DNA of 21,554 nt from Potamolinea sp. (GTDB lineage Bacteria > Cyanobacteriota > Cyanobacteriia > Cyanobacteriales > Coleofasciculaceae). The notes under the pieces were generated by a model, which was given only the letters and a program-made list of their open reading frames with translations, searched no databases and was not told where the DNA came from. The translations under genes and the position numbers were made by a program. Each line of letters opens with the position of its first letter. Positions within the stretch are counted from its first letter, which is position 1. Below are positions 1-16,420 of the stretch, piece by piece. The stretch lies in contig JAYFMV010000019.1 in NCBI GenBank assembly GCA_042408245.1, positions 67,511 to 89,064 on the forward strand. The letters run 5' to 3'.

Positions 1-381
1 ATCTGGCAAACTTCTTGATGAAGCTGGTAATAAGTCAGAGTTCGTGTATCACCGTTTTCTCCTTCCCAAATCAGAGCAGCTTTATGTTTTCGCTCGTTAG
101 TGAGATGTCTGTCGAGACAGTTATAAGAAATATTGATTTTTCCGCCCACAAACCACTTAGCGAAGGGTGGTTGCCAGTCTAGTACCGTATCCCACTTCTG
201 AAACCAGTGTAGTTCCTGCTCTGCCAACTGTGCCCAAAAGGCTTGCGGGTCAGCTTTTGCTTCGTCGTAGAGGCCGTTGATACTCCTCTAAGCTTTTGAT
301 GTGAGCATCGCGGGAAAATTCTGCGGAGGGCGGGAATTTGCGTTTTTCTCGCAGAATGGATTCGATAGCTGGTTCTGGCAT
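1..381 (-). pseudogene. acs: acetyl-CoA synthetase, 5' part (runs off the window start), with an apparent +1 frameshift near nt 273
   Basis: The reverse strand translates from the ATG at 381-379 as [36 protein letters not shown] and then hits a stop. One frame over, translation continues as [90 protein letters not shown]. This matches the characteristic Acs N-terminus, including the [10 protein letters not shown] motif. The two halves rejoin if the single base at about plus-strand nt 273 is removed. Confidence 0.6.
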
Positions 382-454
382 CTTTGAGAATGACTTATAA
401 ATTAAGTCTGTCTTAGCTCAGCCATTGATGAGTTGCCAAATTTAGGTATGAAAT

Positions 455-1762
455 TCAAAGTCGGGGTTCTGACATGGGCCAATTACTGGTAGGAGGAAAA
501 GATTGCTCGGTGTGCAAAATCGACGAACCGGGCTCACTAGGTTTGTTGACCCGAAGCGCCAAGCCAAATCCAGCACCTGCAGATGCAGCGATCGCACCAG
601 TCATCAGCAATGCTTGTAGTGGTAGTAAGGCTTTGTTCGTTTTACGTTTTGTAGATGCGGTGTTCTGGGACTTACCCTTAATATTTAGTTTAGTTAATAA
701 CGTATTGACAAAAGCAGTTTTATACGAATCTTTGGATTTTTCCGTCGCTAATTGAGTAGTTTTACCTTTTTTTGTTGTCTGCTTGACTGATATCTGAGCT
801 TTGGTTTTGGCTACTGAAAGCTCTTGAAGAGCAGGAGTATGCTTGACTCTTTCCTTATACCTGGGAAACAGGGATAGCCAAGCTTCTAAAGTTTGGGGAC
901 GTTTGCGAGCCGAGATTTCTAGCCCGCGCGAAATTGCCTGTTTAACAACTAAGCTAATGGATTGTTCTAAGTTTGGCGGAAAAAGTGTCTCTAAGCTATT
1001 TTCTGAGGATTGTTTGCTAACATTTGTAGGCTTCTTTAACTGTATCTCTTGTCCCTGTGCGTTAACGGACTCGCTTACAGCAAGCTTTGCTTGGCGGTGA
1101 CGAACTGGCGCCGGCTCAGGTGCATTTCCTGTTAGCAAACAGTAGAGAGTTGCTGAAGCGGCGTAAATATCTGTAGCCCGTGAGTGCTTCCCGCTAGGAT
1201 AATACTGTTCCAACGGTGCATACCCAGCACACATTAGACTGGCATGAGATTGCCTCACTCCTGCTGTAAACTCACAGGTAATACCAAACTCACATAGCAC
1301 CACAGAGTCAGTGTCTTGACGCAGAATAATGTTTTTGGGTCTGACATTGCGGTGTAGCAAACCAGCGTTATGAAGTACGAGCAAGGCGCTGCCAATTTGA
1401 CGAATATACTTAATTGCTTGATGCTCTGGCAATACCTCAATTTGAATTACTTCAGCCAGACTGTACCCCGGAATATATTCCATCACGATGTAGGGGCGTC
1501 CGCTATCTTCAAAATAGTCTAGTACCTGAACTAGATGCGGATGCTTACAGCAACTCAAGCGTTGTCCCAGATCTAGAAATTGTTGCTTAAAGTGCTCAAA
1601 ACTCGAATGTTGGCACAGATTTTCGCTGAGAGTTTTGATGACGACCGTTTGACCTGACTCGGTATGGGTTGCTTGATATGTGATACCAAACATCCCTTTG
1701 CCCAACTGAGTGTCAAGAACGTAGTTGCCGTTATTTAAGGCTGTTTTCGTCATCAAATTCAT
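455..1762 (-). CDS. Ser/Thr protein kinase-like protein, predicted pseudokinase (HRD changed to HRN, DFG changed to EFG), with a K/T/S-rich linker and a C-terminal transmembrane anchor
   Basis: The N-terminal 270 aa have a Hanks-type kinase fold: glycine loop LGKGMFGITY, VAIK-type lysine in VVIKTL, and an APE-like motif GYAPLE. The catalytic loop reads LHRNVRPKNIIL where HRDLKPEN is expected, and the Mg-binding motif is EFG, not DFG. A low-complexity K/T/S-rich region follows. One hydrophobic helix (ALLPLQALLMTGAIAASAGAGFGLALRV) sits about 30 aa before the C-terminus. Confidence 0.8.
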   Translation of the reverse strand: MNLMTKTALNNGNYVLDTQLGKGMFGITYQATHTESGQTVVIKTLSENLCQHSSFEHFKQQFLDLGQRLSCCKHPHLVQVLDYFEDSGRPYIVMEYIPGYSLAEVIQIEVLPEHQAIKYIRQIGSALLVLHNAGLLHRNVRPKNIILRQDTDSVVLCEFGITCEFTAGVRQSHASLMCAGYAPLEQYYPSGKHSRATDIYAASATLYCLLTGNAPEPAPVRHRQAKLAVSESVNAQGQEIQLKKPTNVSKQSSENSLETLFPPNLEQSISLVVKQAISRGLEISARKRPQTLEAWLSLFPRYKERVKHTPALQELSVAKTKAQISVKQTTKKGKTTQLATEKSKDSYKTAFVNTLLTKLNIKGKSQNTASTKRKTNKALLPLQALLMTGAIAASAGAGFGLALRVNKPSEPGSSILHTEQSFPPTSNWPMSEPRL

Positions 1763-1857
1763 AAAAATTTACTTACCAGTTGCTTGCCTTATGCTACCTC
1801 TTAAGGGTTTCAGGTTAAAAGTTGCCGGTTAAAAATTTCAACCGAATCGTGAGAATC

Positions 1858-1916
1858 CCCTTCCTCCGCGTAGCAGGGAGGGGAGGGAGAGCGGAGCGGC
1901 GGAAGTAGGGAGCCGC
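1858..1916. repeat. GC-rich hairpin cluster immediately 3' of isrB; candidate right-end structure of the element
   Basis: CCTCC gcgtagcag GGAGG and GGCGG aagtagggag CCGCC stem-loops. Poly-purine GGGAGGGGAGGGAG tract. Shares the 11-mer GAAGTAGGGAG with the hairpin at 3255-3281. Confidence 0.4.
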
Positions 1917-1921
1917 CCAAG

Positions 1922-3070
1922 TCAGCAGAATTTGACATAAGAGAGTAGCCTCGTTGAGCACTTAACAAGCTGAACTTTAGATACAGAAAATTGACCAATC
2001 CTGTGCCAGTTGATGTCATAAACAGAAACATTTTTTGTCTTAGCTGAATTGGTATAACCACCAATCCAGCCAGTATAAGACTGCCCCGCCTTTGAGGCGA
2101 TAGCGAAGCGCTGCTGCAAGCAGATCACCTTGTCTCCAGAACGCAACCCAAAAGGTGTAACGGTTCCACCCTTGCGTTTGCGGTGTTCTAGATGAGTGGG
2201 AGAGCCTTTAACTGGATTCTCGAAGTGCAATTGACGACGATACAACTGTGGTCTAGCTATGATGACAAACGGACATTTGGTTATCTCGATTTCCCCTAGC
2301 CAATGACCCCCACGAGCATTGTTACTTATCCAGTTTTGCCACTTAATGAAGTGGCTAGCAGCTAGAGTAAGACCATCGTGCGAGTGTGTTTCAGGAGTGG
2401 GATTAGCTTTATTGGTTTTATCTTTCGCCAACCCCAACCACTGCCGAAGATTGGAAGTTTGCCAACCTAATTGAGTGCTAGTTGGTTTAATTTCAGATAA
2501 CCACTCCACCATGATTTTCTGCCCAACCATTGCAGGTGAAAAGCTTTTACTACCCCGTGCTTCTATCCGCTCATAAATAATCTGAGATATGGGATAGAGC
2601 TTAAGTAGTTCTTTGACTACTCTTAACTCCATCTGTTTGTTCGCTCGGATACTGGGAACAAGCTTTCTTTGTCTGCGGTTGTCGAATCGCTTCTGACGAT
2701 GACAGCGTTGATTGTAGGGGAGTTTGCGATTAATTCTCCGTCCACGTCTGGCTCTTCGTAGTATCCGTCTTGTTGTCATCTTTTTGGTGACAGATTTAAA
2801 CGGTAACTGAAGATGAGCTTTGAATAGAGTTGCTTTTGTACTCTGTAGGCCAATGCCAGTAAAAAGTTTTCCTGGGTCGATACCAAGGGCAATGTCTTGG
2901 GTTTCTCTACCAGATGGCTCAGACAATAAACGGACTCCGTAAACCTCCAAATCATTGCGAACAGCAAGGGCTTTTCCTAATTTGATCCAGCGTCTAGCGC
3001 GACTGCTTTTGGTCGGCATGGCTGGAGTTCCGTCAGGATTTTGAACTGAAACTCTAATTGTGTTTGACAT
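1922..3070 (-). CDS. isrB: IsrB-like RNA-guided nickase homolog (IscB family lacking the HNH insertion), RuvC-like nuclease
   Basis: N-terminal PLMP-type motif (RVSVQNPDGTPAMPTKSSRARRWIKLGKALAV). RuvC-I motif ALGIDPG. Arginine-rich RRXRR bridge helix (RRILRRARRGRRINRKLPYNQRCHRQKRFDNRRQRK). RuvC-II motif around IIYERIEARG. RuvC-III-like HSHDGLTLAASH. There is no Cys/His HNH module between RuvC-II and RuvC-III. Length is about 380 aa. The ORF track extends the gene to a GTG at 3109; the ATG at 3070 (MSNTIRVSV...) is the more likely start. Confidence 0.7.
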   Translation of the reverse strand: MSNTIRVSVQNPDGTPAMPTKSSRARRWIKLGKALAVRNDLEVYGVRLLSEPSGRETQDIALGIDPGKLFTGIGLQSTKATLFKAHLQLPFKSVTKKMTTRRILRRARRGRRINRKLPYNQRCHRQKRFDNRRQRKLVPSIRANKQMELRVVKELLKLYPISQIIYERIEARGSKSFSPAMVGQKIMVEWLSEIKPTSTQLGWQTSNLRQWLGLAKDKTNKANPTPETHSHDGLTLAASHFIKWQNWISNNARGGHWLGEIEITKCPFVIIARPQLYRRQLHFENPVKGSPTHLEHRKRKGGTVTPFGLRSGDKVICLQQRFAIASKAGQSYTGWIGGYTNSAKTKNVSVYDINWHRIGQFSVSKVQLVKCSTRLLSYVKFC

Positions 3071-3300
3071 GGAGATAATCCTGTAAAACAGTTGTATGTT
3101 CCTTCCCACAATTCAGCTAGGATGTCCTTTCTACAAGCACTCTTAAACAAAGAGTTTGAACATAGTCCAATGAGAGGGAAACGAGCGGAAGTTCGTGCCT
3201 AACTAAATCTCATGTGGTAGACAAGAGTTACCCTTGAAAGTTGTTTCTTTCAAGCCCCTCCCTCAACGAAGTAGGGAGGGGTTCTTGACCTCTCAGCCTT
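3071..3300 (-). ncRNA. Candidate omega-RNA of the IsrB element, inferred by position only
   Basis: In IscB/IsrB systems the omega-RNA lies immediately upstream of the nuclease ORF and overlaps its 5' end, with the guide at the far upstream end. This 180-230 nt non-coding stretch carries two consecutive perfect hairpins on the isrB strand: CTTGAAAG-ttgttt-CTTTCAAG at 3233-3254 and CCCCTCCCT-caacgaagt-AGGGAGGGG at 3255-3281. No covariance model could be run. Confidence 0.3.
3233..3281. repeat. Two tandem perfect stem-loops (8 bp and 9 bp stems) at the isrB-proximal end; candidate left-end TnpA-recognition or omega-RNA structure
   Basis: cttgaaag ttgttt ctttcaag at 3233-3254. cccctccct caacgaagt agggagggg at 3255-3281. 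Confidence 0.6.
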
Positions 3301-6115
3301 TGAGTGGATAATTCTCTGCCAGAAAAGCTTCAGCATCAGCTTGATCATCAATCAACCCATCCAGCGTAGCCGCTAACAAAGCATCCAAGATTTGTCTGTA
3401 TTGGGGGCCAGGTTTATAACCCAACTGCTTAAGATCATTACCATTAAGCGGTAATTGAACATCCGTCAAAATACTGAAATATTCCCAAATCTTACGTCTT
3501 ACTGCTCTGGGACTCTTCACTGCGAGCAAAATCAAGGTGGATAACTTGTACTGACGCAGCAAGCGGACAATTTCACTCTTGAGCCCAGAAACTGAGAGAA
3601 ACTCTACCACTGACTCTTGTATTTGAGCTAATTGCTGGAGGCGCTCAATACTGTCCGATGGTAGCTGAAGATTTGTGGCCACCTTAGCACGTTCTTCAGG
3701 AGCGAGATAAGCAATTAATACTTCCAGCCGGATTTGCCAGTGTTCCAGAGTTTGCTCAGGGTCAAACCGTCGCAGCCAACGGTCAACTAAACGTACTTGC
3801 CACCATAGCTTTTCATCTAGCTTAAGAGTGAAATGGAGACAACGCAGCGCTCCCAAAGACGCCAGTAACTGCAAAGCTTTTTCCCAGTAAGGAGCCTGTA
3901 AAATATGTTTAAGTTCGGCTTTGAGTCTGGTTTGTAGTGCTGGTGCTTTAGCATTTGCCTTCATTGAGCGCTCGTAGACTCCACTTTCAAGCGCATAGCG
4001 GATATAAGCTTCGGTTTGAGGTTCAATTTGAAATCCCAAACGTACCGCAAAGCGCACAGCACGATAAATCCGGGTTGGGTCTTCGATAAAACTGTTAGCG
4101 TGGAGTACCCGAATTTGACGCGATCGCAAATCCAACAACCCCCCAAAAAAATCCATCAGAGGAAACGCCCAACCAAGGTCAGAAGTTAGTCGGACAGCCA
4201 AAGCATTAATGGTAAAATCTCGTCGATAAAGGTCTTGACGAATCGAACTGGCTTCAACTTCAGGATTAGCCGCAGGGTAGGGATAAAATTCTGTTCGTGC
4301 GGTGGCAATATCTATCCAGAGAGAGCCAAGAATGGGGTCATTGTGCCACAACAAGGCAGCAGTTTGAAAAGCCCCGTGAACGTCTAGACGGACGTTTGGG
4401 TAAATTTTCTGTAGCGCTTGGGCCAGTATTACTCCAGCACCAGTGTCTGCTGAACGATGAAAGCCATCTACTACCAAGTCAATATCTTTTAGAAAGACGT
4501 TATCAGAGCCTTCAACCAGCAATAAGTCTCTTACGGCTCCTCCTACCAAGTAAAGATGCCAGCCCCGTTCCTTGGCTTCCTGGGCGGCTTTGCTAAGCAA
4601 TTCTTTAAGGGGAGGAACCAAACGCTCCCGAAGATTCCGGATTGCTTCCCTAGAGATTGGAGGGGTGGAATCGGGACTGGGGATAGGACAAGAATCGAAT
4701 TGGGTCTCCTGTTGATGCAGTTGTCGCAACACGTCGGTGCGAGTCACAATTCCGACTAATTGCCCATTCTCTAAAACTGGTAGACGCCCAATATCGTATG
4801 TCACCATCAGCCACTGAAGATCTGGTAGAGGTGTCTGAGGAGTAATTGTTTTTAGATTTTTGGTCATGTAGCCTTTGACCGGCGCATGACCAAAACCGTG
4901 ATGTAGGGCTAAATCAATATCTCGTCGCGAGATAACTCCTACAAGTTGGTCGTTTTCGTCTACTACCGAAAGTCCTGAATGACCATACCGCAGCAATATT
5001 CTCTGTGCTTCGCTAATCGTGGTTTGGGGACGAATTGTGCGTACTGGTGAAGACATGAGTTCCCGTGCGGTTAAAGGTTGGGGAATTTGCTCTTTGAGTT
5101 GGTTAACTAGCTGTTCAAGGATTTGTGTGGGATTAACATCTCGGAGTCTCACTGCTGCTGCTTGGGAATGTCCCCCACCACCTAGGGGTTGCAGTAATTC
5201 GTTTAAATTTGTCCCTTCAATACGCGATCGCCCAATCACTGTCAAAAGTGACCCTGTTACCCTCTGAGAAATATTAGACACATTCTCCCGTGCTCCCCCA
5301 TCTCCCCTATCTCCCCCATCTCTCCCATCTCCCCCATCTCCCCCATCTCCCCCATCTCTCCCATCTCCCCCATACTCAGCGGCCAACAGCAGTGCATCAC
5401 TCTCAGTTAACTCAAGCAGTCGTGTCGCCAAACTGGATAACCCTGGTACGTAGTCATGGGTTTTGAGGATTACCCAGGAAACGGTGTAGCCTAAGTGAGT
5501 TTGTGACTGCAAGTTATGTAAGGCTTCGGTCAAAAGTTTTTGTAAGCGAGGAGACAGTCCAGGGTCAACGTATTCGGAGATTTGCCGCACGTTTGCTCCC
5601 TGTAGCATCAACCAAGCTAAAGCAGCAGCGTCTCTTGGTGTCGTCTGGTCAAAGGTCAGTGAACCTGTATCAACATGAATACCCAAGGCCATCACTGTTG
5701 CTTCTGCGATGGTCAAGGAGATTTCGCTTTGCTGCAACTGCTCAACAATTATGGTAGTTGTCGCTCCTACGGGTTCAATGTGAGTATGTGTAGCGGGAAT
5801 ATCTGTATGAATATCTAGGTGATGGTCGTAGATTTCAATTGAGGTTAACTGAGGTAAGTCTAACCACTGGGCTGCTTTTCCCAGGCGATCGCGCGATGAA
5901 GTATCTACTACAATCAGAGACTGAATCTGTTGGGAATTGACAGAGCGGCGTTCAATCAGCGCATACTCATCTCGATGCAATGCCAAAAAATCTCGAACAG
6001 CAGGATGAGCGCCACCAGTGAGAACTAATTTAGCTCCTGGTTTTAGGCACGTCAGCCCCACCGCTGCTCCCAAGGCGTCAAAGTCAGCCGTTGTATGACA
6101 CAAAATCAGATCCAT
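3293..6115 (-). CDS. Multidomain RNA-end enzyme: NrnA-like DHH/DHHA1 phosphoesterase, two CBS domains, and a class II nucleotidyltransferase (CCA-adding / poly(A) polymerase family)
   Basis: DHH motifs [15 protein letters not shown] and IEIYDHH. DHHA1 motif GGGH ([13 protein letters not shown]). A tandem CBS pair follows ([20 protein letters not shown]...[20 protein letters not shown]). The nucleotidyltransferase head carries [17 protein letters not shown] and [11 protein letters not shown] low-complexity [26 protein letters not shown] segment lies between DHH and DHHA1. Confidence 0.85.
5296..5373. repeat. In-frame tandem repeat of the 9-bp unit CCATCTCCC, about 8.5 copies with point variants, inside the DHH-nucleotidyltransferase gene
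   Basis: Direct reading gives ccatctccc ctatctccc ccatctctc ccatctccc ccatctccc ccatctccc ccatctctc ccatctccc. On the coding strand this encodes the (G-G-D/G-R-D)n linker. Because the unit length is a multiple of 3, copy-number changes preserve the reading frame. Confidence 0.9.
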
Positions 6116-6229: not shown

Positions 6230-7684
6230 TCACCCCACCTTTTTAGAGGTGGGGGTGTCTATGCTAAGAAAGGGACTGTTGAGGTTCCACAAATCACAAA
6301 GACAAGCCCAGCTTCTAGGCAAGCGTCCAGAATTTTTACTGGGGCGCTTCTCGTAGTCCTTTCGGCTATCGAGTTTAAGCCAACCTCTCGCGGCGATATT
6401 GTAAGACCCGTTCAGGTCGCAGTTGTAACGCTTCCCGCTAGAGAAAGTAGCTAATGCGTAATTCTTATTGTCGCGTTTCACTTTGCCCGACCCATCATAA
6501 GCAAGCTTTGAGGTATAGGCAGCAATCACGGTGATTGTTTTGCCGCCTAACTCAGCCCATTTACGTTGGGTCAGATCAACGATTAGGCTTTTGAGCCAAC
6601 CATGAAACCGTTGCTTCAGGTTAGATCGTTTCCTGCCTCCCTTTGGCTTCCAGCCTTTGAGATCCTCAAACACAATTGCGTCTGCACGCTCTGTCTGAGC
6701 AATCTGGGTAATGCGTTTAGAAACGGTATGCCCCATCTGTTGATTGATATTGCGACACTTGCGATAGGTGTTTTTGCAGAATCCTAACCCTAGTTTTCCG
6801 CCTTTCCCCATCGTCTTCTTAGCCCGTATCGAAACTGATTTCAGTCGCTTGTCGCGGCGGTCTATGTCTCTTCCAGGATGAATAAATTCACGATGGATTA
6901 CAGTACCGTCACGGCTCACCACTGAAACAGTAGCAGTCGTATTAATTCCTAAATCAACCGCCACAACCACGCCAGCCCCTTTCACCTTCTCAGGGTGGCA
7001 CTCAAAGGGAACCGACAAATGGCAAAATTTGTCGTTCACGATCAGCGAGGGTGATTTGATTTGATTGGTCGAAATCTTATGCCGTTCACGCCACGAAGCG
7101 ATAGGCATGGCGCTCCAAATCCAATCGGTTCCGGTAAACACTTTAATTTCGACTTGCTCGAATCCATGCAGCTTGAAACATTGCCCTTTGTACAGAGCAG
7201 GATAACAACCCGCACTACTATTGAGAATTGGGGGTTTTGCATCTCTACGGTTCCGACTTTGCCCAGACTGCCAATCCCGGTATCGAGTCATGTAGCTACT
7301 CACCTGTCCTGCTGCAAACATGATTGCAGCGCGGCGTAAATAGCTAGGGAACTTGTGAAACGCTCGGTTAATTTGAGGGTATTTCGGATGAGGATTCTTT
7401 GCGGTTCCATGTACCAATCTTTCGACGGCAGGAACGATATTATCACCGCTTAGATTCCCCAAATCAACCCAGTGGGTACAGATCACCGTCACCAAGAACC
7501 GACATAAACGGCGGTATTCCTGCACAGTGTTAAGCAGATATTGTCTCTGCTCACTGCTTGGGGCAATGCGCCACTTGTCGGTTCTGATAGCGCGAGCGGT
7601 AGCGACGTAGGAGCGTCTGGTTTTAGGTGCTGTTTTTTGTCCCATAGTATTTATAGTGTAGCGCATAGAGTAAAACCATGACAA
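6230..7684 (-). CDS. tnpB: TnpB-family RuvC-like protein (IS605 OrfB). The zinc-finger cysteines are absent. The start codon is uncertain: TTG at 7684, or ATG at 7666 or 7645.
   Basis: RuvC-I motif VVAVDLGINTTATV. RuvC-II motif AIVFEDLKG. YTS motif (AAYTSKLAY). RuvC-III motif CDLNGSYNIAARG. Where the two CxxC pairs are expected, the sequence reads LAYDGSG...FSSGKRYNCD. Divergently coupled to tnpA. Confidence 0.7.
   Translation of the reverse strand: MSWFYSMRYTINTMGQKTAPKTRRSYVATARAIRTDKWRIAPSSEQRQYLLNTVQEYRRLCRFLVTVICTHWVDLGNLSGDNIVPAVERLVHGTAKNPHPKYPQINRAFHKFPSYLRRAAIMFAAGQVSSYMTRYRDWQSGQSRNRRDAKPPILNSSAGCYPALYKGQCFKLHGFEQVEIKVFTGTDWIWSAMPIASWRERHKISTNQIKSPSLIVNDKFCHLSVPFECHPEKVKGAGVVVAVDLGINTTATVSVVSRDGTVIHREFIHPGRDIDRRDKRLKSVSIRAKKTMGKGGKLGLGFCKNTYRKCRNINQQMGHTVSKRITQIAQTERADAIVFEDLKGWKPKGGRKRSNLKQRFHGWLKSLIVDLTQRKWAELGGKTITVIAAYTSKLAYDGSGKVKRDNKNYALATFSSGKRYNCDLNGSYNIAARGWLKLDSRKDYEKRPSKNSGRLPRSWACLCDLWNLNSPFLSIDTPTSKKVG
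6231..6257. repeat. Subterminal hairpin at the tnpB-proximal end (right end) of the IS605-type element
   Basis: caCCCCACCT ttttag AGGTGGGGgtg. It overlaps the last codons of tnpB (...TPTSKKVG*) and is the same motif as at 8115-8138. Confidence 0.65.
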
Positions 7685-8097
7685 GAAGCTTAAGAGCTTT
7701 TGCTCACAGCTATTGCAGTATTCAGATTCATATGGTGTTTGTTACAAAGTATCGTCACCCCGTCTTGACTGAGCAGATAGAGTCTGACATCATCCAACTG
7801 TGTCGAGGGATCTGCGAAAAAAACCGTTCTTACCTCGTAGAAGCAAAAGCAGATTTAGAGATGAAAGACCATATCCATTTGTTAATAGACTTTGCGCCTG
7901 ATGTCTCTGTGTCGAAGCTGGCTAACACAATGAAGACCGTTACCAGTCGTGAGATTCGGAAGCGTTTTGCAACTGAACTGAAACCTTATTACTGGAAACC
8001 TGTTTTTTGGAAGCGCGGCTATTGTGCTGTTTCTGGGGGTGGCGCAACGCTTGAGGTTATTAAGTCCTATATCCAATCTCAGGGTAAGGACGACTAG
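7678..8097 (+). CDS. tnpA: IS200/IS605-family Y1 (HUH) transposase TnpA
   Basis: 139 aa. IHMVFVTKYRHPVL. HUH motif HIHLLI. C-terminal catalytic tyrosine context WKRGYCAVSGGG...IKSYIQSQ. The size and motif order match IS200 TnpA. Confidence 0.85.
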   Translation: MTRSLRAFAHSYCSIQIHMVFVTKYRHPVLTEQIESDIIQLCRGICEKNRSYLVEAKADLEMKDHIHLLIDFAPDVSVSKLANTMKTVTSREIRKRFATELKPYYWKPVFWKRGYCAVSGGGATLEVIKSYIQSQGKDD

Positions 8098-8509: not shown

Positions 8510-8536
8510 GCACTAAATGCTTAGGCATTATAGTGC
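8510..8536. repeat. Near-perfect palindrome centred on the stop codon of the solo tnpB, 14 nt after the psbZ stop
   Basis: GCACTAAATGC ttag GCATTaTAGTGC. Candidate right-end or omega-RNA 3' hairpin of the solo tnpB element, or the psbZ 3' stem-loop, or both. Confidence 0.5.
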
Positions 8537-9786
8537 AGGCTTCCCAGATCGCTATTGGATATTGCTGCCCTACGCCACTTATCTAGGCTCATCACCCCCG
8601 ACAGCCCGACATGAGTGCCAATTTCTTTCCCCCAAAGTCCTTGGGTACTCAGTTGCTCATAACCTCGGTTACAGATTTCCTGTGCCGAGACTACATCTCT
8701 ATCAGCTTCGTAACCACATTCTGGGCAACTATGCCATCGCTCTTTCAGTTCTTTCCTGACTTCAATGCGGCAATTTGGACAAGTCTGAGACGTTCCTTTG
8801 TGGTTGACCTCGGCAACATATACACCTCGCTGTTTACCCACATAAGAAAGGATAGTTCTGAACTGTCCAAAGGCTGCATCAATGGTGTGCTTACCTAAAA
8901 AGCCCTTTGCCATGATTCGGAAATCGATATCTTCCACGAAGATGGTATCAGCCATGTCACACAATTTGTGAGCCAATTTGAACTGATAGTCTTTACGTTT
9001 GAAGGCAATGTGGTTATGTTGACGCTCTACCTTGAGCCTAACTTTCTCATAGTTTTTAGAGCGCTTCTTCTTTTTCGACAGTCTGCGTTGTAGCACTTTC
9101 AGCCGACGATGCTCTGTGGCAAAGAATTTACGCCCTGGCTCAATGAATCCTTCACTGGTCGCTAGATAATTATTCAACCCAACATCCACCCCAATCAAGT
9201 GTCCGTGAGGCATGGGAGCGGGGATAGAGAGATCAGAATGAATGCTGATTACAGCAAACCAGCCCATTGCTTTTTTGAGTATCCTGACTTGTTTGACTAC
9301 AAACCCTTCTGGGATTGGTCGATGCAAGTTGATTTGAACTTTCCCCAGTTTGGGTAACTTGATTTGCCACCCTGTAATTGGATTAGTGGAAAACTGAGGA
9401 AAAAGTATCGACTTCCAGAGTCCATACTTCTTGAATCTCGGAAATCCATAACCCCTTTTCTGGAAAAAGTCCCAGGAATCATGCAATCTTCTAATCGTTG
9501 TTTGCAACACCTGAGAAGGCACTGCTGCTAGTCGCGGAAAGTCCTTTTTAGCTTTGGGGAGATTGTTTTGCTGCTGATGGTATCCAGGAAAAGGATAGTC
9601 AGCACTCATGATGTACTCTGACTCCAAACTACAGCTATCTATTGGACACTTCCTAGAAGCAATCCAGTCCTTTAGTTCCCTGAGTGCATAGTTATACGCA
9701 TGACGACAAGTTTCAAGCCATTCGTTCAGTAACTCGACTTGCTGCTCATCGGGTATTAGGCGGTAGGTGTAGTTGAGAGTTATCAT
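8521..9786 (-). CDS. tnpB: Canonical TnpB (IS605 OrfB / IS1341-like) RNA-guided nuclease family protein. Solo, with no tnpA.
   Basis: N-terminus YRLIPDEQQVELLNEWLETCRHAYNYAL. RuvC-I motif LIGVDVGLNNYLATS. RuvC-II motif TIFVEDIDF. Intact zinc finger TSQTCPNC...WHSCPECG. RuvC-III motif ADRDVVSAQEICNRG. Confidence 0.85.
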   Translation of the reverse strand: MITLNYTYRLIPDEQQVELLNEWLETCRHAYNYALRELKDWIASRKCPIDSCSLESEYIMSADYPFPGYHQQQNNLPKAKKDFPRLAAVPSQVLQTTIRRLHDSWDFFQKRGYGFPRFKKYGLWKSILFPQFSTNPITGWQIKLPKLGKVQINLHRPIPEGFVVKQVRILKKAMGWFAVISIHSDLSIPAPMPHGHLIGVDVGLNNYLATSEGFIEPGRKFFATEHRRLKVLQRRLSKKKKRSKNYEKVRLKVERQHNHIAFKRKDYQFKLAHKLCDMADTIFVEDIDFRIMAKGFLGKHTIDAAFGQFRTILSYVGKQRGVYVAEVNHKGTSQTCPNCRIEVRKELKERWHSCPECGYEADRDVVSAQEICNRGYEQLSTQGLWGKEIGTHVGLSGVMSLDKWRRAAISNSDLGSLHYNA

Positions 9787-11384: not shown

Positions 11385-11590
11385 TAAGTAACATAAAAAT
11401 ACCAGTTTTACCCAGACGAAAACCGCTGTAATCAAGCAAACAGCGAGCTTGAGTTTGAGGAAATGCCGAACAGAGATTGGTGAAGATCAAGGAAAGCGCT
11501 AATATATAAAAAAATGGGCGCTTACTGTACATCGCCAAAAACGGGGTCTGGGACGCTGCTCCCGCCGTAAGGCTTTTCCATCACACTAGC

Positions 11591-12076
11591 GTGAGTGACA
11601 AACCTTACGACGTATGTTTTGTAGATAATCTTTGCTTGAAGTATTTTGTTCATGAAATAGCGCTTGTGCCATCTCAGAAAACTCAGAAAATTGACTTAAA
11701 TACTGAGTACCCCTGTCCTTGTAGGCGTCGGGGAGCTTTAGTACCGATTACACTGACAGAAGCATTTGGCTGCAATCGCTGTCAGCAAATTTTCGTTGTC
11801 GAAGAAAGTGGGTATGTGATTGAGCAACTGTCCACAAGCTACCCCTACAAAAAAGCTTGGCGTTGGACAGGCCATCGGTGGAGTACGGCAAATTCTAGTC
11901 TTGGAGAAAGTTATCTTCCCATAGCGCTGGGAATTGTCTTCGTGCTGCTGATTTTCTGGCTACCGTTGGCCCTGCGCTCTCCCACAGGACTAAGCAACAT
12001 TATTCTCTGGACATTGCTGGCCGTGCTGCTAGCTTTGCTCCCAGCGTTAATGGTCTGGCTAACTTACCGACGTTAG
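11591..12076 (+). CDS. Hypothetical protein with an N-terminal zinc-ribbon-like region (CPC...CNRC) and two C-terminal transmembrane helices
   Basis: 161-aa ORF ending 7 nt before the proA-like start. EYPCPCRRRG...FGCNRCQQIF. Hydrophobic segments LPIALGIVFVLLIFWLPLAL and IILWTLLAVLLALLPALMVWL. Confidence 0.5.
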   Translation: MSDKPYDVCFVDNLCLKYFVHEIALVPSQKTQKIDLNTEYPCPCRRRGALVPITLTEAFGCNRCQQIFVVEESGYVIEQLSTSYPYKKAWRWTGHRWSTANSSLGESYLPIALGIVFVLLIFWLPLALRSPTGLSNIILWTLLAVLLALLPALMVWLTYRR

Positions 12077-12082
12077 CAGAAT

Positions 12083-13351
12083 ATGGAAATCGACGCTTGT
12101 AGCTTTGCGCTTAACCCGACTGATGCTGTGAGTCGTGCTTATCAGGCTTCTCTGGCTCTAGCAACTACCAACGGAATAGACCGCTCTCGTGGCGTCCAAG
12201 CGATGGCGCAGGCGCTGCAAAAATCCTTTGATGATATTTTGGAGGCCAACACCCTAGATTTAGAAGCAAGCCGAGAAATGGCTGTGCCAGAGCTAGTTTG
12301 GGAGTGGCTAAAGCTGACACCAGAGCGCCTTCAAACCACCATCCAGATCTTACAAAGAATTGGCGAATTATCAGATCCGATCCGGCGGGTGATGAACGCC
12401 TCTTATCAACTTGAACACTCTCAGACTTACGCTCAATTGATGCCACTGGGAGTAATTGCTTTAATTTATGAGGCATTTCCAGAGTTGGGGGCGATCGCTG
12501 CTGGTTTTTGTATCAAGACTGGCAATAGCCTAATTCTCAGAGGAGGTAGCGAAGCCAGTCAATCTAACCAGGTAATTGCCAAAGCCTTACAAACTGCACT
12601 CGATGAAGCTGGTTTGCCAGTGGGATGCTTGGAACTATTGCCATCAGAACAGGGTACTTCGATTCGAGATTTAGTCACTCAAGATCGATATCTAAGTCTG
12701 GTTATTCCCTATGGACGACCAACGCTAGTCCAGCAGGTGACGCAGCAAGCAACGGCACCCATTTTGAGGTCGGCAATGGGCAACTGTTACCTTTACTGGT
12801 CTGGCACTGGTAGTTTGGGAATGGTAACTTCGGTGATTTTAGACAGTCACGCTAGCGAACCAGACCCCGTGAATGCGATTGAAAAAATTCTCATCAGTCG
12901 CTTGTCAAAGCCTTCTTCCTTGGTAATTTTGTGGAAAAGCCTCAAGGAAAAAGGCTTTAAACTTAGAGGCGATGCTGAGCTAGTGGCTGAATTTCCCGAA
13001 TATTTGACCTTGGCTACAGATGCTGAGTGGAACCAACCTTATCTTGATAAGATTGTGGCTTTTAAAGTAGTAGACACTCTCGAAGAGGCGATCGCCTGGA
13101 TGAACCACTACAGTAGCGGTCATGCTGATTGCATTGTCACCGAGTCTTACCAAGAAAGTCGCCAGTTTGCTTTAGGTGTCGATAGCGCTTCAGTTTACAT
13201 TAATTCCTCGCCGCGATTTTCACGCAACCCAAAACGGGGAGATGCAGTTTTTCTGGGGATGTGTAATCAGAAAGGATATCGTCGGGGGATGATTAGCCTT
13301 GAGACGCTAACGACACTCAAACAGGTTGTGCAGGGAAATGGAAAATATTAA
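12083..13351 (+). CDS. Gamma-glutamyl phosphate reductase (ProA) family protein; probable non-catalytic paralog with Val in place of the nucleophilic Cys
   Basis: Collinear with ProA along the whole length: PLGVIALIYEA, KTGNSLILRGG, GNCYLY (ProA GVCHIY), HADCIV (ProA HSDAIL), VDSASVYINSSPRF and LETLTTLK. At the TCNAxETLLV active-site motif the protein reads DPVNAIEKILI: P, N, E and LL[IV] are conserved but Cys is replaced by Val. Confidence 0.75.
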   Translation: MEIDACSFALNPTDAVSRAYQASLALATTNGIDRSRGVQAMAQALQKSFDDILEANTLDLEASREMAVPELVWEWLKLTPERLQTTIQILQRIGELSDPIRRVMNASYQLEHSQTYAQLMPLGVIALIYEAFPELGAIAAGFCIKTGNSLILRGGSEASQSNQVIAKALQTALDEAGLPVGCLELLPSEQGTSIRDLVTQDRYLSLVIPYGRPTLVQQVTQQATAPILRSAMGNCYLYWSGTGSLGMVTSVILDSHASEPDPVNAIEKILISRLSKPSSLVILWKSLKEKGFKLRGDAELVAEFPEYLTLATDAEWNQPYLDKIVAFKVVDTLEEAIAWMNHYSSGHADCIVTESYQESRQFALGVDSASVYINSSPRFSRNPKRGDAVFLGMCNQKGYRRGMISLETLTTLKQVVQGNGKY

Positions 13352-13591
13352 TTAGTTATTGGTTCTTGATTGTGTAGGCTATATTTTGCCAAAATCATGA
13401 TTTAACTCAGAGCATCCCCATCTGATTATAGCTAAAATTAGTGTAAAAAAATAGACACAAAATAGCCCATCTCTGAAAAGACGTATTTGCGTTCAATAAA
13501 TGAATTCATTCTCAATAATCTTGAGAATACCCCCCTTTTATTGAGAAAATTCTAGTTATACAAAAATTTACGCGGTTTTTACAAAAGTTTG

Positions 13592-13629
13592 CAAAAAACA
13601 GGACAGGGGGGAACCCTGTCCTGCAAAAA
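13592..13629 (-). terminator. Intrinsic terminator for the minus-strand small ORF
   Basis: 10-bp GC-rich stem CAGGACAGGG / CCCTGTCCTG with a GGGAA loop. On the minus strand the stem is followed immediately by TTTTTTG. Confidence 0.45.
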
Positions 13630-13728
13630 CAACTAATAAGATCATGTCCAACTGCATCGGTATTATCAGCTCAGACAGCAGGAGCCTCACCCCATAATCG
13701 CTTCGATTTGGTGTGAGAGGAATGCGAG

Positions 13729-13899
13729 TCAAAGGAAGGGGTTCAATACCCCTTTCTTTGACATTTTCTTGGCTAGAGTTCGCAGGTAATCTCTAAACAC
13801 GTCATTCTGGGTTCTGGCGGTCATCTCGCAGTATTGTCGCCACACTTCTTTTTCTTCCGGGGTGAGGCGAAAGTTAACATTTTCGGTAAGTTTTGCCAT
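13729..13899 (-). CDS. Small ribbon-helix-helix (CopG/Arc-like) DNA-binding protein, 56 aa; below the ORF-track length cutoff
   Basis: Translates as MAKLTENVNFRLTPEEKEVWRQYCEMTARTQNDVFRDYLRTLAKKMSKKGVLNPFL. The beta-strand (VNFRLT) plus two helices match the RHH signature. ATG at 13899, stop at 13729-13731. The start lies 35 nt from the divergent tnpB-like start. The terminator sits about 100 nt downstream. Confidence 0.5.
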   Translation of the reverse strand: MAKLTENVNFRLTPEEKEVWRQYCEMTARTQNDVFRDYLRTLAKKMSKKGVLNPFL

Positions 13900-13933
13900 T
13901 ACTTTGTATTTGATATTCCATTACAATAGTGAC

Positions 13934-15298
13934 ATGAAATACACTTACCAGTACAAGGCGCTTCCCACAACCGAACAGAAGCTAGAGTTGAATCTCTGGC
14001 GGCGAACCTGCCAGTACTGGTATAATCGCCAACTCGGAGATCGCGTTATGTGGTGGGACTCAAACCGCACACCTGTTGACGCTTGCCCACTGGTGGCGAC
14101 GCTGCCAGAACTTCGTGACCAACCCAACTACTACAGCCAGAAAAAGTATCTACCAGGACTCAAGAAAGAACCTGTATTAGTGGAGTGGTCTGGGGAAAAG
14201 TTAGACTTATCAAGAGTTCCAGCAAACACGTTACAGGAAGTCTGTAAACGAGTTGACTTGGCCTTCCAACGATTTACCGCAGGTGATACAAGCGGAAACC
14301 GAAGCGGCAGACCCCGCTTCAAGTCACAATCTCGCTATCGTTCATTTGTGATTGAAGGCGCCTCTTTGGATCTATACTCTTGCTCAATTGGCGGCAAGTT
14401 CCTGTACATTAAGGTGCCAAAGATTGGTGTCGTCAAAATTCGTTCTCATCGGCATTTGCCTGATGGTGCAGTTCTCAAGCAATTGCAGTTCATCAAGAAC
14501 AATGATGGCTGGTTCGTTAATCTTCGGTTGGAAGATCCAACTGTTCCCATTTGCACCAATGACATCATTCCCACTTGGGAAAACTCGCTGGGCATGGACG
14601 CTGTGCTGCATGAAGAAGATTACCTAGCAACCAGTGAGAATACCAAGCTTCCCTCCCTGAAGGTGTTGAGGAAAAGCCAGCACAAACTAACTCACGTTTC
14701 CTCAAAAAAGAACGCCCGAAAGCGCGGCTCTAAGGCACGTCGAAAGCTGGCGAAAAGAGAGGGCAAACTGCATCAAAAGATTGCCAGACATCGTAAAAAT
14801 TTCCACTACAAAACCGCCCATAAATTGTTGAGAACGGGCAAGAAAGTTTTCTTCCATGAAGACCTCAACCTAAAAGGTCTGTCAAGGCGCAACGCCCCCA
14901 AACAAGACGAAACTGGGGCATACATACCGAATGGACAGTCTGCCAAGTCGGGACTCAATATGAGTTGGTCTGATGCTGCCTTCGGTCAATTCTTTCAAAT
15001 CCTCGGTCACATAGCTGGAAAAGCTGGAGCCGTAGTGATACCGAAGAATCCCGCTTATACCTCCCAACTCCTTGCTTATCGAGATGAAGTGATCTTCATC
15101 GACTGTGGCATTCGCCAGTATTGGGATGAGCTAGAAAATCTCTGGGTTGATCGTGACGTTAATGCTGCGATCAATGTTCTGAGAGTGGGGCTGGACGTGT
15201 TCCCCACTATAAAACGCCGTAAAGGTGGAATAGTAATAGTCGGTTCTATCACTAAAGATACCTCCAAGGAAGTTCTACGCATTCTCCGGAGTGCTTGA
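13934..15298 (+). CDS. tnpB: TnpB-family RuvC-like protein (IS605 OrfB) with the zinc finger degenerated
   Basis: N-terminus MKYTYQYKALPTTEQKLELNLWRRTCQYWYNRQLGDR. RuvC-I motif SLGMDAVL. RuvC-II motif KVFFHEDLNLKG. YTSQ motif. RuvC-III motif DRDVNAAINVL. The CxxC...CxxC pairs are replaced by LAYRDE...FIDCGIRQ. The ORF-track start at 13862 is a GTG extension that overlaps the divergent RHH ORF; the ATG at 13934 is in frame and fits the family N-terminus. Confidence 0.75.
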   Translation: MKYTYQYKALPTTEQKLELNLWRRTCQYWYNRQLGDRVMWWDSNRTPVDACPLVATLPELRDQPNYYSQKKYLPGLKKEPVLVEWSGEKLDLSRVPANTLQEVCKRVDLAFQRFTAGDTSGNRSGRPRFKSQSRYRSFVIEGASLDLYSCSIGGKFLYIKVPKIGVVKIRSHRHLPDGAVLKQLQFIKNNDGWFVNLRLEDPTVPICTNDIIPTWENSLGMDAVLHEEDYLATSENTKLPSLKVLRKSQHKLTHVSSKKNARKRGSKARRKLAKREGKLHQKIARHRKNFHYKTAHKLLRTGKKVFFHEDLNLKGLSRRNAPKQDETGAYIPNGQSAKSGLNMSWSDAAFGQFFQILGHIAGKAGAVVIPKNPAYTSQLLAYRDEVIFIDCGIRQYWDELENLWVDRDVNAAINVLRVGLDVFPTIKRRKGGIVIVGSITKDTSKEVLRILRSA

Positions 15299-15302
15299 GA
15301 AG

Positions 15303-15335
15303 CCTACACCAACCTGATTACAGGTATGGTGTAGG
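15303..15335. repeat. Perfect 9-bp stem hairpin with a palindromic loop, 5 nt after the tnpB-like stop; candidate right-end or omega-RNA structure
   Basis: CCTACACCA acctgattacaggta TGGTGTAGG. The loop is itself palindromic (ACCTG/CAGGT). Confidence 0.5.
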
Positions 15336-15435
15336 AGCGTCACGAAAGGTAATTGGTAGTTAAGTTGTACTCATCAGCCATTACTTATTACCCATTACCC
15401 ACTCTTCAACAACGAAGCCAAAGGACTTAATATAA

Positions 15436-16251
15436 CTATTCTTTGCCTACCAGTTTAACCTTCTGTGCCAGACCAAACATTTGGAGGAACTGAATAGTCA
15501 TCCAAGTCATATCAATTTCCCACCATTTCATACCGTGACGAGCGGAATATTGGTAAGCGTGATGATTGTTGTGCCAGCCTTCACCGTAGGTAACCAAAGC
15601 CACCCACCAGCAGTTTTTTGAGCAGTCATTAGACTCAAAAGTACGATAGCCAAATTTGTGAGTAGCACTGTTAACAAACCAAGTGCAGTGAAACACAAAA
15701 ATTAGCCGAACAAAAATTCCCCAAACAACAAAAGACCAGCCGCCTAAAGCATAAAGCAACAGTCCCAAGACAGTTTGGAGAGGAATAAAATATTTATCTA
15801 AAAACTGATAGACCGGATCTTCAGCAATGTCTTTCGTAAAGCGAGGAACTTCGTCTTTGGCCGGAGTCTGATAAAACATCCAGCCCATGTGACTCCACCA
15901 AAAGCCCTTATTGGAGTCATGAGGATCGAGGCCGGAGTCGGAGTGTAAATGATGGATGCGGTGTAGCCCAACCCAATCAATTACTCCTCCTTGACAGGAA
16001 AGGGTGCCACAGAAAACTAGGAAATATTCCAGCCACTTGGGGGTCTGAAAACTACGGTGAGTCACCAAGCGATGCCATCCCAAGGTGATACCCAAGCCAC
16101 CTGTTACCCAGTGGAGGAAAAGCGCTAAGCCCACTGCTGTCCAGCTAAAGTTGCCGGGGAGCAAAGCAAAAAGCGCTGCGATGTGAATTAGGGCCATGTA
16201 GATAATGATGACCCAATCCAAGCGGAGATTATTTGAGGTGGCAATTGTCAT
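15436..16251 (-). CDS. desC: Acyl-lipid delta-9 fatty-acid desaturase
   Basis: 271 aa with the three histidine boxes HRLVTHRSF, HRIHHLHSD and HNNHHAYQY. Four predicted transmembrane segments. Typical cyanobacterial DesC layout. Confidence 0.9.
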   Translation of the reverse strand: MTIATSNNLRLDWVIIIYMALIHIAALFALLPGNFSWTAVGLALFLHWVTGGLGITLGWHRLVTHRSFQTPKWLEYFLVFCGTLSCQGGVIDWVGLHRIHHLHSDSGLDPHDSNKGFWWSHMGWMFYQTPAKDEVPRFTKDIAEDPVYQFLDKYFIPLQTVLGLLLYALGGWSFVVWGIFVRLIFVFHCTWFVNSATHKFGYRTFESNDCSKNCWWVALVTYGEGWHNNHHAYQYSARHGMKWWEIDMTWMTIQFLQMFGLAQKVKLVGKE

Positions 16252-16420
16252 GAACTAACCTTCAATGCGAAAATACCTCGTGCCAGTTTATCGGAATTTT
16301 GAGGCTGGAATTACAGAGCTACTATTGGTTTTGACTGAGACCAACGCTAACTTCTATAGGGAAGCAGAGACTCTCTAATTTTAACAACTATTAACATTCT
16401 TTAACAGAATCTAACTCTTA

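Follow-up and report, generated by a model that had tools for sequence, protein, structure and literature searches.

A gene at positions 455 to 1762 on the minus strand of a 21,554-nucleotide (nt) stretch of Potamolinea sp. DNA (contig JAYFMV010000019.1, positions 67,511 to 89,064; this whole stretch is hereafter called the window) probably encodes a membrane-tethered, noncatalytic pseudokinase of the Hanks type that serves as a scaffold or switch. The predicted protein of 435 amino acids (aa), followed by a TGA stop codon, carries a kinase-like domain with substituted catalytic residues, which is joined by a disordered linker to a single transmembrane (TM) helix and a short conserved tail. 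We consider it very likely that this protein is without canonical kinase activity, and a role as a scaffold or decoy rather than an enzyme, as proposed in a first-pass annotation made from the letters alone, is plausible. The gene appears as a complete frame in the list of open reading frames (ORFs), has a Pfam Pkinase match, and retrieves 523 homologs at E ≤ 1e-10. An exact database lookup of the protein found no record, and a promoter and terminator scan of positions 1 to 3400 found no more sites than in shuffled sequence.

Both sequence profile and fold place the protein in the Hanks-type kinase superfamily. The kinase-like domain (residues 14 to 300; positions 863 to 1723, on the minus strand like all features of the gene) was delimited with Pfam, AlphaFold2, and Foldseek. 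Pfam Pkinase (PF00069) matches residues 14 to 253 with an E value of 1.2e-34 and 120.4 bits, against a cutoff of 31.7. NCBIfam kinase models, including one for a defense-system kinase, matched far under their equivalog cutoffs and were set aside as generic kinase-domain similarity. The protein is not of the PknB/PASTA type (NF033483), for which it scored 126.9 bits against a cutoff of 450, and it has no PASTA domain. With 44 family sequences as input, AlphaFold2 confidently predicts a bilobal kinase fold, and its predicted local distance difference test (pLDDT) values are >90 across most of residues 10 to 300. Searched against the Protein Data Bank (PDB) with Foldseek, the query matched PpkA, PknA, PknE, and PknB best (probability, 1.0; TM-score on the target, 0.71 to 0.80).

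Within this fold, the residues that define catalysis have changed. The first-pass annotation had assigned the catalytic Asp to an Asn and the DFG Asp to a Glu, and profile and PDB alignments bear it out. In phmmer alignments to PknE (2h34) and StkP, His137-Arg138-Asn139 (HRN; positions 1346 to 1354) falls on HRD, so that the catalytic-base Asp is Asn (codon AAT, positions 1346 to 1348), and Glu158-Phe159-Gly160 (EFG; positions 1283 to 1291) falls on DFG, so that the Mg-binding Asp is Glu (codon GAG, positions 1289 to 1291). By the sequence definition, a kinase homolog counts as a pseudokinase once it has lost its beta3 Lys or either of the HRD and DFG Asp residues, and this protein qualifies, as the annotation had held. 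Three of the structural elements that it listed as retained are indeed present: the Gly-rich loop GKGMFG, intact in the query (residues 21 to 26; positions 1685 to 1702), the beta3 Lys43 (VVIKT; positions 1634 to 1636), and the APE-like motif APLE that closes the activation segment (residues 182 to 185; positions 1208 to 1219), whose Glu185 is invariant in an alignment of 44 family sequences. The fourth, the alphaC Glu, is not. Gapless alignment to canonical cyanobacterial serine/threonine kinases (STKs; KFQDEA) and to StkP (RFQREA) sets the register and puts Leu65 (positions 1568 to 1570) in that column. The Lys-Glu salt bridge is therefore lost, and with Leu65, Asn139, and Glu158, three canonical catalytic-site positions are substituted rather than two. 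The catalytic-loop Asn144, a metal ligand (positions 1331 to 1333), is kept, as are Asp198 and Arg288.

The remainder of the protein largely has the layout originally described. A K/T/S-rich juxtamembrane linker (residues 301 to 378; positions 629 to 862), recognized from its pLDDT, composition, conservation, and substitution rates, contains 17 Lys and 13 Thr among the 79 residues counted (300 to 378), and the model is disordered over residues 305 to 379 (pLDDT, <50) before a helix begins at residues 379 to 394. Only one segment is hydrophobic enough to span a membrane, the helix LLPLQALLMTGAIAASAGAGFGLAL (residues 379 to 403; positions 554 to 628), with its best 19-residue Kyte-Doolittle window at residues 385 to 403 (mean, 1.69). 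Six Lys/Arg residues flank it on the N-terminal side and two on the C-terminal side, a distribution that fits an N-in/C-out orientation, and small residues recur four apart along the helix (A392/G396/G400). The extracytoplasmic tail RVNKPSEPGSSILHTEQSFPPTSNWPMSEPRL (residues 404 to 435; positions 458 to 553) is present, as noted earlier, but it is no incidental appendage: nothing else in the protein is as tightly constrained as this tail and the TM helix. Nor is the topology unusual, as the annotation had supposed: of 42 families of bacterial STKs, 25 have a kinase domain that leads through a linker into a C-terminal TM helix, which makes this layout the commonest (10.1101/2025.01.12.632604).

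We next consider how widely these substitutions are shared, using a family set of 121 sequences that comprises the query and the 120 best of the 523 homologs (43 to 93% identical). The named relatives are all cyanobacterial and mainly filamentous (Coleofasciculus, Microcoleus, Moorena, and Symploca; also Waterburya). At the DFG Asp column, 118 sequences have Glu, two have Gly, and one has Asp. Leu, Ile, Phe, or Met occupies the alphaC Glu column in 111 of the 121. Glu at DFG and a hydrophobic alphaC residue are thus fixed in this orthologous family from filamentous cyanobacteria. The HRD Asp column is more often canonical (Asp in 110, Asn in 10, Ala in 1). The catalytic-loop Asn is kept in 116 sequences and replaced in 5, and the beta3 Lys is kept in 107, with Arg in the other 14, which form a single clade. 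By Fitch parsimony on a neighbor-joining tree of the same sequences, the HRD Asp was lost five times independently, once in the query's own clade, and the catalytic-loop Asn was also lost five times independently. That clade consists of the query and three proteins (P0001 to P0003) that are 72 to 93% identical, and all four members carry HRN. HRN is accordingly a later and recurrent step, which arose about four times independently, in the query clade and on other branches. The ATP-binding loop has decayed as well: all three glycines of GxGxxG survive in only 18 of the 121 sequences, and each of the other three HRN clade members has lost one of them.

The ratio of nonsynonymous to synonymous substitution rates (dN/dS), estimated by the Nei-Gojobori method within the HRN clade, shows how constraint is distributed along the protein. 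It is 0.23 to 0.33 for the kinase-like domain, 0.2 to 0.6 for the linker, and 0.02 to 0.05 for the TM helix and tail, at a synonymous divergence (dS) of ~0.5 to 0.6. Neighboring housekeeping genes have values of 0.07 to 0.13. Relative to these, the kinase-like domain is 2 to 3 times more relaxed, whereas the C terminus is tighter. Because EFG is present in 118 of 121 sequences and HRN in four of four clade members, and because dN/dS is well below 1 (~0.25 for the domain), the gene is maintained by purifying selection. Conservation in orthologs, which the first-pass annotation had put forward as a sign of a selected pseudokinase as opposed to recent decay, thus points to a selected one.

The TM helix and tail are the most constrained and best conserved part of the protein. 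In the 44-sequence alignment, the last ~55 residues are conserved like the kinase core, while the linker is hypervariable in both length and sequence; mean column conservation falls from 0.82 in the TM helix through 0.75 in the tail and 0.68 in the kinase domain to 0.37 in the linker. Positions T388, A392, G396, G398, F399, G400, and A402 are invariant in the helix, and R404, G412, Q420, F422, P423, and P429 are invariant in the tail. The C-terminal consensus of these sequences reads LxALLMTGAIAASAGxGFGFALRxNxPxxPGSTILHTEQSFPPRSNWPxSEPxL. The TM helix and the ~30-aa tail carry the motif GxGFGLALRxNxPxxPGSxxxHTEQSFPPxxxWP, and no Pfam model covers this region. Here, we will refer to it as the TM-plus-tail module. 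The query has both of its parts, a TM helix with GxGFGLALR and then PGSxxxHTEQSFPPxxxWP.

To survey the module, we searched 1.84 billion representative proteins exhaustively by phmmer with the 61-aa C terminus as the query (E ≤ 1e-3), and 107 proteins matched; a word-indexed search with the same 61 aa matched only 3 fragments. Five of the matches (P0150, P0180, P0203, P0215, and P0228) were discarded as spurious, as they align, in several repeats, over the Gly/Ala-rich TM part only and have no tail. A hidden Markov model (HMM) of the module matches 287 of the sequences gathered for the analysis. Among the phmmer matches, 68 are full-length carriers when aligned to the family HMM, in a census drawn from cluster representatives and metagenome contigs in which that alignment decides some column assignments of very divergent members. 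Their DFG column holds Asp in 34, Asn in 15, Gly in 10, and Glu in 8, and their HRD Asp column holds Asp in 37, Asn in 20, and other residues in 11; 15 of the carriers have no beta3 Lys. All four of the Lys, Asp, Asn, and Asp are kept in 23 of the 68, and the alphaC Glu is kept in only 4 of those 23. The module thus defines a wider cyanobacterial group, and two thirds of its kinase domains are without a catalytic residue. Longer carriers continue past the tail with Pro/Ala/Ser-rich low-complexity sequence and have no further Pfam domain. At the other extreme, 17 proteins of 66 to 106 aa consist of a Met start, a short N terminus, the TM helix, and the tail. One further protein is arranged differently: P0133 (216 aa) has the module at its N terminus (residues 8 to 59), with no kinase domain before it, and continues with tandem Arg-rich repeats, ERPVRRRRRVAFDES.

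Gene order ties the short and the long forms to a single genomic position. Three orthologous loci, those of the 93%-identical ortholog (L001), of Coleofasciculus chthonoplastes PCC 7420 (L082), and of Microcoleus sp. FACHB-SPT15 (L083), have one common arrangement. Genes for Aldedh, a hypothetical protein, RibH, and Ycf9 point one way, with Aldedh outermost, and next to Ycf9 a run in the opposite direction encodes DHH-CBS-PolyA_pol, the kinase-like protein, DUF6825, ABC1 (~585 aa), and PP2C (~245 aa). DHH-CBS-PolyA_pol lies directly upstream in these three loci and in L084, L002, and L089/L090. The downstream trio of DUF6825, an ABC1/UbiB kinase, and PP2C is found in L001 (positions 11457 to 14453), L082 (9897 to 13045), and L083 (9562 to 12583), as well as in L085 (5175 to 8174), L087, L091 (8663 to 11963), and L013 (~12523 to 16075). 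L085 holds another HRN clade member, and L091 is the Kovacikia minuta locus of a distant module-bearing member, P0255, that combines HQN with DFG. A profile search of contigs with the family alignment supplied distant relatives as outgroups (L002, L013, and L003 to L012), with no close orthologs among the matches listed. One of these, L002, encodes a basal member that keeps its Asp residues (LVDYGL and HLD), has the same tail, and sits behind DHH-CBS-PolyA_pol.

We also looked up two loci at which the module stands alone, in proteins of 72 to 80 aa that belong to no Pfam family. P0160 (80 aa; L087, positions 5001 to 5243) is encoded immediately upstream of DUF6825-ABC1-PP2C. P0144 (72 aa; L089 and L090, positions 5001 to 5219) is encoded immediately downstream of CBS-PolyA_pol, with its start overlapping the CBS-PolyA_pol stop. 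No kinase-domain remnant was detected by tblastn in either locus. In some lineages, then, the slot of the kinase-like gene encodes the module alone.

The genes linked to this slot have known relatives. The PP2C is closely homologous to the crystallized PphA-type phosphatase 2J82 (289 bits; E = 2e-85). A Synechocystis run of sll1769 (SynPG18, a cyanoglobule protein), sll1770 (SpkI/ABC1K7), and pphA has been documented, and the kinase for PII is still unidentified (PMC12223511, PMC11863333, PMC6685665). The linked trio matches this run in gene order, and from gene order alone we infer that DUF6825 is the counterpart of PG18/sll1769; a literature search on DUF6825 found no papers.

Taken together, these observations favor a membrane-tethered pseudokinase that would perform no canonical phosphotransfer. 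Nucleotide might be bound in a one-cation mode like that of HER3 or JAK JH2, with Lys43 paired to Glu158 and Asn144 holding the metal; since the Gly loop has decayed in the nearest relatives, even such binding may not be strictly required. The TM-plus-tail module would dock the protein to a membrane partner or drive oligomerization via its small-residue face; the A392/G396/G400 run and the invariant tail suggest a specific helix-helix or periplasmic/lumenal contact. The kinase-like domain, on the cytoplasmic side, could then offer a regulated binding surface, act on a partner allosterically, or engage active kinases or phosphatases as a decoy substrate. Partners in related genomes are perhaps the products of the linked DUF6825 (PG18-like), SpkI-like ABC1, and PphA-like PP2C genes.

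Several observations weigh against this interpretation. Across the EFG family, conservation of the HRD Asp (91%), of the catalytic-loop Asn (96%), and of the beta3 Lys (88%) exceeds that of an average column, and therefore most members may keep nucleotide binding or weak activity. Some pseudokinases defined by sequence, namely, HER3, JAK2 JH2, CASK, and KSR2, are weakly active (PMC4718504). AlphaFold2 models the tail with low confidence (pLDDT, <50), and the DUF6825-ABC1-PP2C linkage is absent from the window, where an acetyl-CoA-synthetase-like gene lies downstream instead.

One possibility, which we regard as unlikely, is that the protein is a low-activity or atypical kinase in which Glu158 still places a metal and another residue, or substrate-assisted catalysis, stands in for Asp139, allowing weak phosphorylation of itself or of a substrate. 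The query keeps Lys43, Asn144, an intact GxGxxG, the APE Glu, and Asp198, most EFG family members keep the HRD Asp, and reviewed exceptions such as HER3, JAK2 JH2, and CASK give the idea precedent (PMC4718504). Such activity would nevertheless have to survive three simultaneous substitutions (L65, N139, and E158), when in twitchin kinase, the Caenorhabditis elegans homolog of titin kinase, the DFG Asp-to-Glu change alone (D147E) abolishes measurable phosphotransfer (PMC4042850). It also sits poorly with the vanishing ATP-loop glycines of the nearest relatives, with the repeated loss of catalytic residues across the group, and with lineages in which the whole domain is gone. Were the protein an ordinary low-activity kinase, our finding would shrink to a sequence curiosity.

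It is less probable still that the kinase-like domain is vestigial, with all function residing in the TM-plus-tail module and the N-terminal 300 residues as ballast. Module-only proteins at the same locus favor this view, and the strongest constraint does fall on the module. The domain, however, evolves at a dN/dS of ~0.25, far under neutrality, and it combines a confidently predicted fold with ~30 residues that are invariant across 44 diverse family members. We give little credence to a third explanation, in which the fold has been repurposed for another reaction, such as AMPylation, glutamylation, or small-molecule phosphorylation, as in SelO, SidJ, and POMK. The preserved fold and possible nucleotide pocket would permit it, the strict Glu at the DFG position suggests selection on that residue, and bacterial precedents have been reviewed (PMC12599244), but no new catalytic motif specific to the family is evident, pocket-lining residues differ between clades, and the loss of the whole domain in positional orthologs speaks against an essential enzymatic role. 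Finally, it is scarcely credible that the gene was inactivated recently and is turning into a pseudogene, or that two of its codons were misread in sequencing: AAT and GAG are each one nucleotide from an Asp codon, IS200/IS605 and HNH insertions abound nearby, the adjacent acs-like gene is frameshifted, and the domain has 2 to 3 times the dN/dS of neighboring genes, yet the 435-aa frame is as intact as in orthologs, HRN is common to four sequences at the divergence given above, EFG is nearly universal in the family, and dN/dS is ≤0.05 for the TM helix and tail.

The membrane-tethered pseudokinase that we favor belongs to a graded series at one genomic position, which runs from a near-canonical kinase (DYG, HLD) through EFG and then EFG plus HRN, as in the query, to the anchor alone. 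In this series, it is the TM helix and the ~30-residue outer tail that look indispensable. A much bolder extension, which we think has very little chance of being correct as a whole, would make the module the functional core of a membrane system tied to the PG18-like, SpkI/ABC1K7-like, and PphA-like trio, with the Hanks domain as its regulatory input. Intact orthologs would be the counter-kinase to PphA (as PII kinase candidates or regulators of cyanoglobule proteins), EFG and HRN forms such as the query would keep the phosphatase or its substrates at the membrane as noncatalytic scaffolds or decoys, and module-only forms would be the end point. As far as the literature and Pfam show, the TM-plus-HTEQSFPP module, its pseudokinase-rich Hanks domains, the stand-alone form at the same locus, and the linkage to DUF6825, SpkI-like, and PphA-like genes are new. 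Bacterial pseudokinases have been catalogued only recently, and the function of almost none is known. The family offers an entry point for study, through the binding partner of the tail and the contribution of the dead domain, and the linkage to homologs of PG18, SpkI, and PphA suggests where partners might be sought, namely, in thylakoid lipid-droplet biology and nitrogen-carbon signaling.

The window itself departs from the common gene order in several ways. The conserved upstream neighbor, a DHH-CBS-poly(A) polymerase-type nucleotidyltransferase of 940 aa identified by Pfam and synteny (positions 3293 to 6115, minus strand), is present, and the query occupies the genomic position of the module group by virtue of this neighbor. 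Between the two lies an RRXRR family (HNH-type) gene of 395 aa (positions 1922 to 3109, minus strand; Pfam RRXRR, 2.3e-42), which is not at that position in L001, L082, or L083. Because its flanking genes are 84 to 184 nt apart in orthologous loci, the RRXRR gene looks like a mobile insertion, and it may separate a co-transcribed pair. Downstream, positions 1 to 382 (minus strand) hold the 5' part of the acetyl-CoA-synthetase-like gene (Pfam ACAS_N, 7e-24). Three-frame translation reveals a frameshift near position 275, with homology resuming in another frame (...NCLDRH); a pseudogene, a sequencing error, or a slippery site would each account for it. An active paralog had been suggested as something to look for nearby, and the 21.5-kb window contains no other ORF with a Pkinase domain, and hence no active Hanks paralog. 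Kinase-domain proteins do occur within 8 to 10 kb of two orthologs: a 2,024-aa Pkinase-AAA_16-GAF-HisKA-HATPase-REC protein of CP1-like architecture (L001, positions 1 to 1570, minus strand) and a Pkinase-pentapeptide-repeat protein (L082, positions 16339 to 17230, minus strand). Neither is present in the window.

Other features of the window lie farther from the gene. A TnpA (Y1 transposase) ORF (positions 7678 to 8097, plus strand) abuts a TnpB-like ORF (6230 to 7684, minus strand) in an IS200/IS605-type arrangement, and there are two more TnpB/Cas12f-like ORFs (8521 to 9786, minus strand, and 13862 to 15298, plus strand); the IS200/IS605-type elements of the window are absent at the corresponding positions in L082 and L083. 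Inside the DHH-CBS-PolyA_pol gene, a 9-nt tandem repeat in nine copies (positions 5293 to 5373; plus-strand consensus, CTCCCCCAT) encodes a Gly/Asp-rich insert, because of which the protein is longer here (940 aa) than in orthologs (926 to 930 aa). A small ORF without a Pfam match (positions 11591 to 12076, plus strand) lies between ribH and an aldehyde-dehydrogenase-like gene. It is ~88% identical over 113 aa to a homolog in L083 (positions 3058 to 3465, minus strand), the N terminus of which has paired-Cys motifs (CPC...CNRC).

How does this protein compare with known pseudokinases and kinases? Seven bacterial pseudokinase families have been named (PMC12599244), and none of them has been described with EFG or with a TM-plus-HTEQSFPP tail. 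Like the query, the families of the bSTK atlas (ActPs2, ActPs3/MviN, GLW, and CP1) and YukC/EssB are bacterial Hanks folds with degraded catalytic motifs; ActPs2, ActPs3, and GLW also have a TM region C-terminal to the domain, and YukC is a monotopic membrane scaffold. ActPs1 to ActPs3, unlike the query, are actinobacterial and have a substituted beta3 Lys, a deleted DFG, or large indels. ActPs2 in particular is defined by beta3 Lys to Arg, HRD Asp to Asn, a deleted DFG, and large insertions, and the query has only HRN in common with it, as Lys43 is present, EFG is undeleted, large insertions are missing, and its relatives are cyanobacterial. GLW proteins have that tripeptide in place of HRD. 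CP1, the only named family reported in cyanobacteria, is cytosolic, without a TM helix, and fused to a COG3899 ATPase, whereas in the query a TM helix lies C-terminal to the kinase-like domain and Pfam recognizes no other domain (PMC12599244 for all of these families).

Among cyanobacterial proteins, a 2007 survey described a handful of deviant STKs, including SpkE/Slr1443 of Synechocystis sp. PCC 6803 (PMC2176072). Compared by literature description only, SpkE and single deviant STKs of marine picocyanobacteria resemble the query in missing the HRD Asp and other conserved residues (PMC2176072, PMC11863333). The activity of SpkE is disputed, with none seen by Kamei et al. and some by Zorina et al. 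(PMC2176072; PMC11863333), and SpkE differs from the query in that it is classed as "cbSTKI-other" and not in the TM subfamily (PMC2176072).

The closest parallels to the individual substitutions come from eukaryotes. Vertebrate titin kinase has a conserved EFG for DFG, and this EFG titin kinase is inactive and acts as a scaffold (PMC4042850; PMC12862963). It is CaMK-like, resides in a giant muscle protein, and has an autoinhibitory tail, no membrane anchor, and an intact HRD Asp, so that only the kinase fold is common to the two. HER3/ErbB3, like JAK JH2, is without the alphaC Glu and has Asn for the HRD Asp, while its beta3 Lys and catalytic-loop Asn are in place, and HER3 likewise has one TM helix that tethers it to the membrane. 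HER3 and JAK JH2 take up ATP with a single cation, held by the catalytic-loop Asn and the DFG acid, and their beta3 Lys is bonded to that acid; HER3 acts allosterically (PMC4718504). It retains the DFG Asp where the query has Glu, and the analogy is one of function only and not of family membership.

The best sequence and structure matches of the query are PknB, PknA, PknE, PpkA, and StkP, and the nearest canonical cyanobacterial STKs are 41 to 45% identical to it. In these five kinases, as in the query, the kinase domain is N-terminal and cytoplasmic, and a juxtamembrane linker connects it to a single TM helix. PknB-type STKs, however, have the canonical residue in the alphaC Glu, HRD Asp, and DFG Asp columns, and they usually display a folded extracellular sensor, such as PASTA, where the query presents a tail of ~30 residues.

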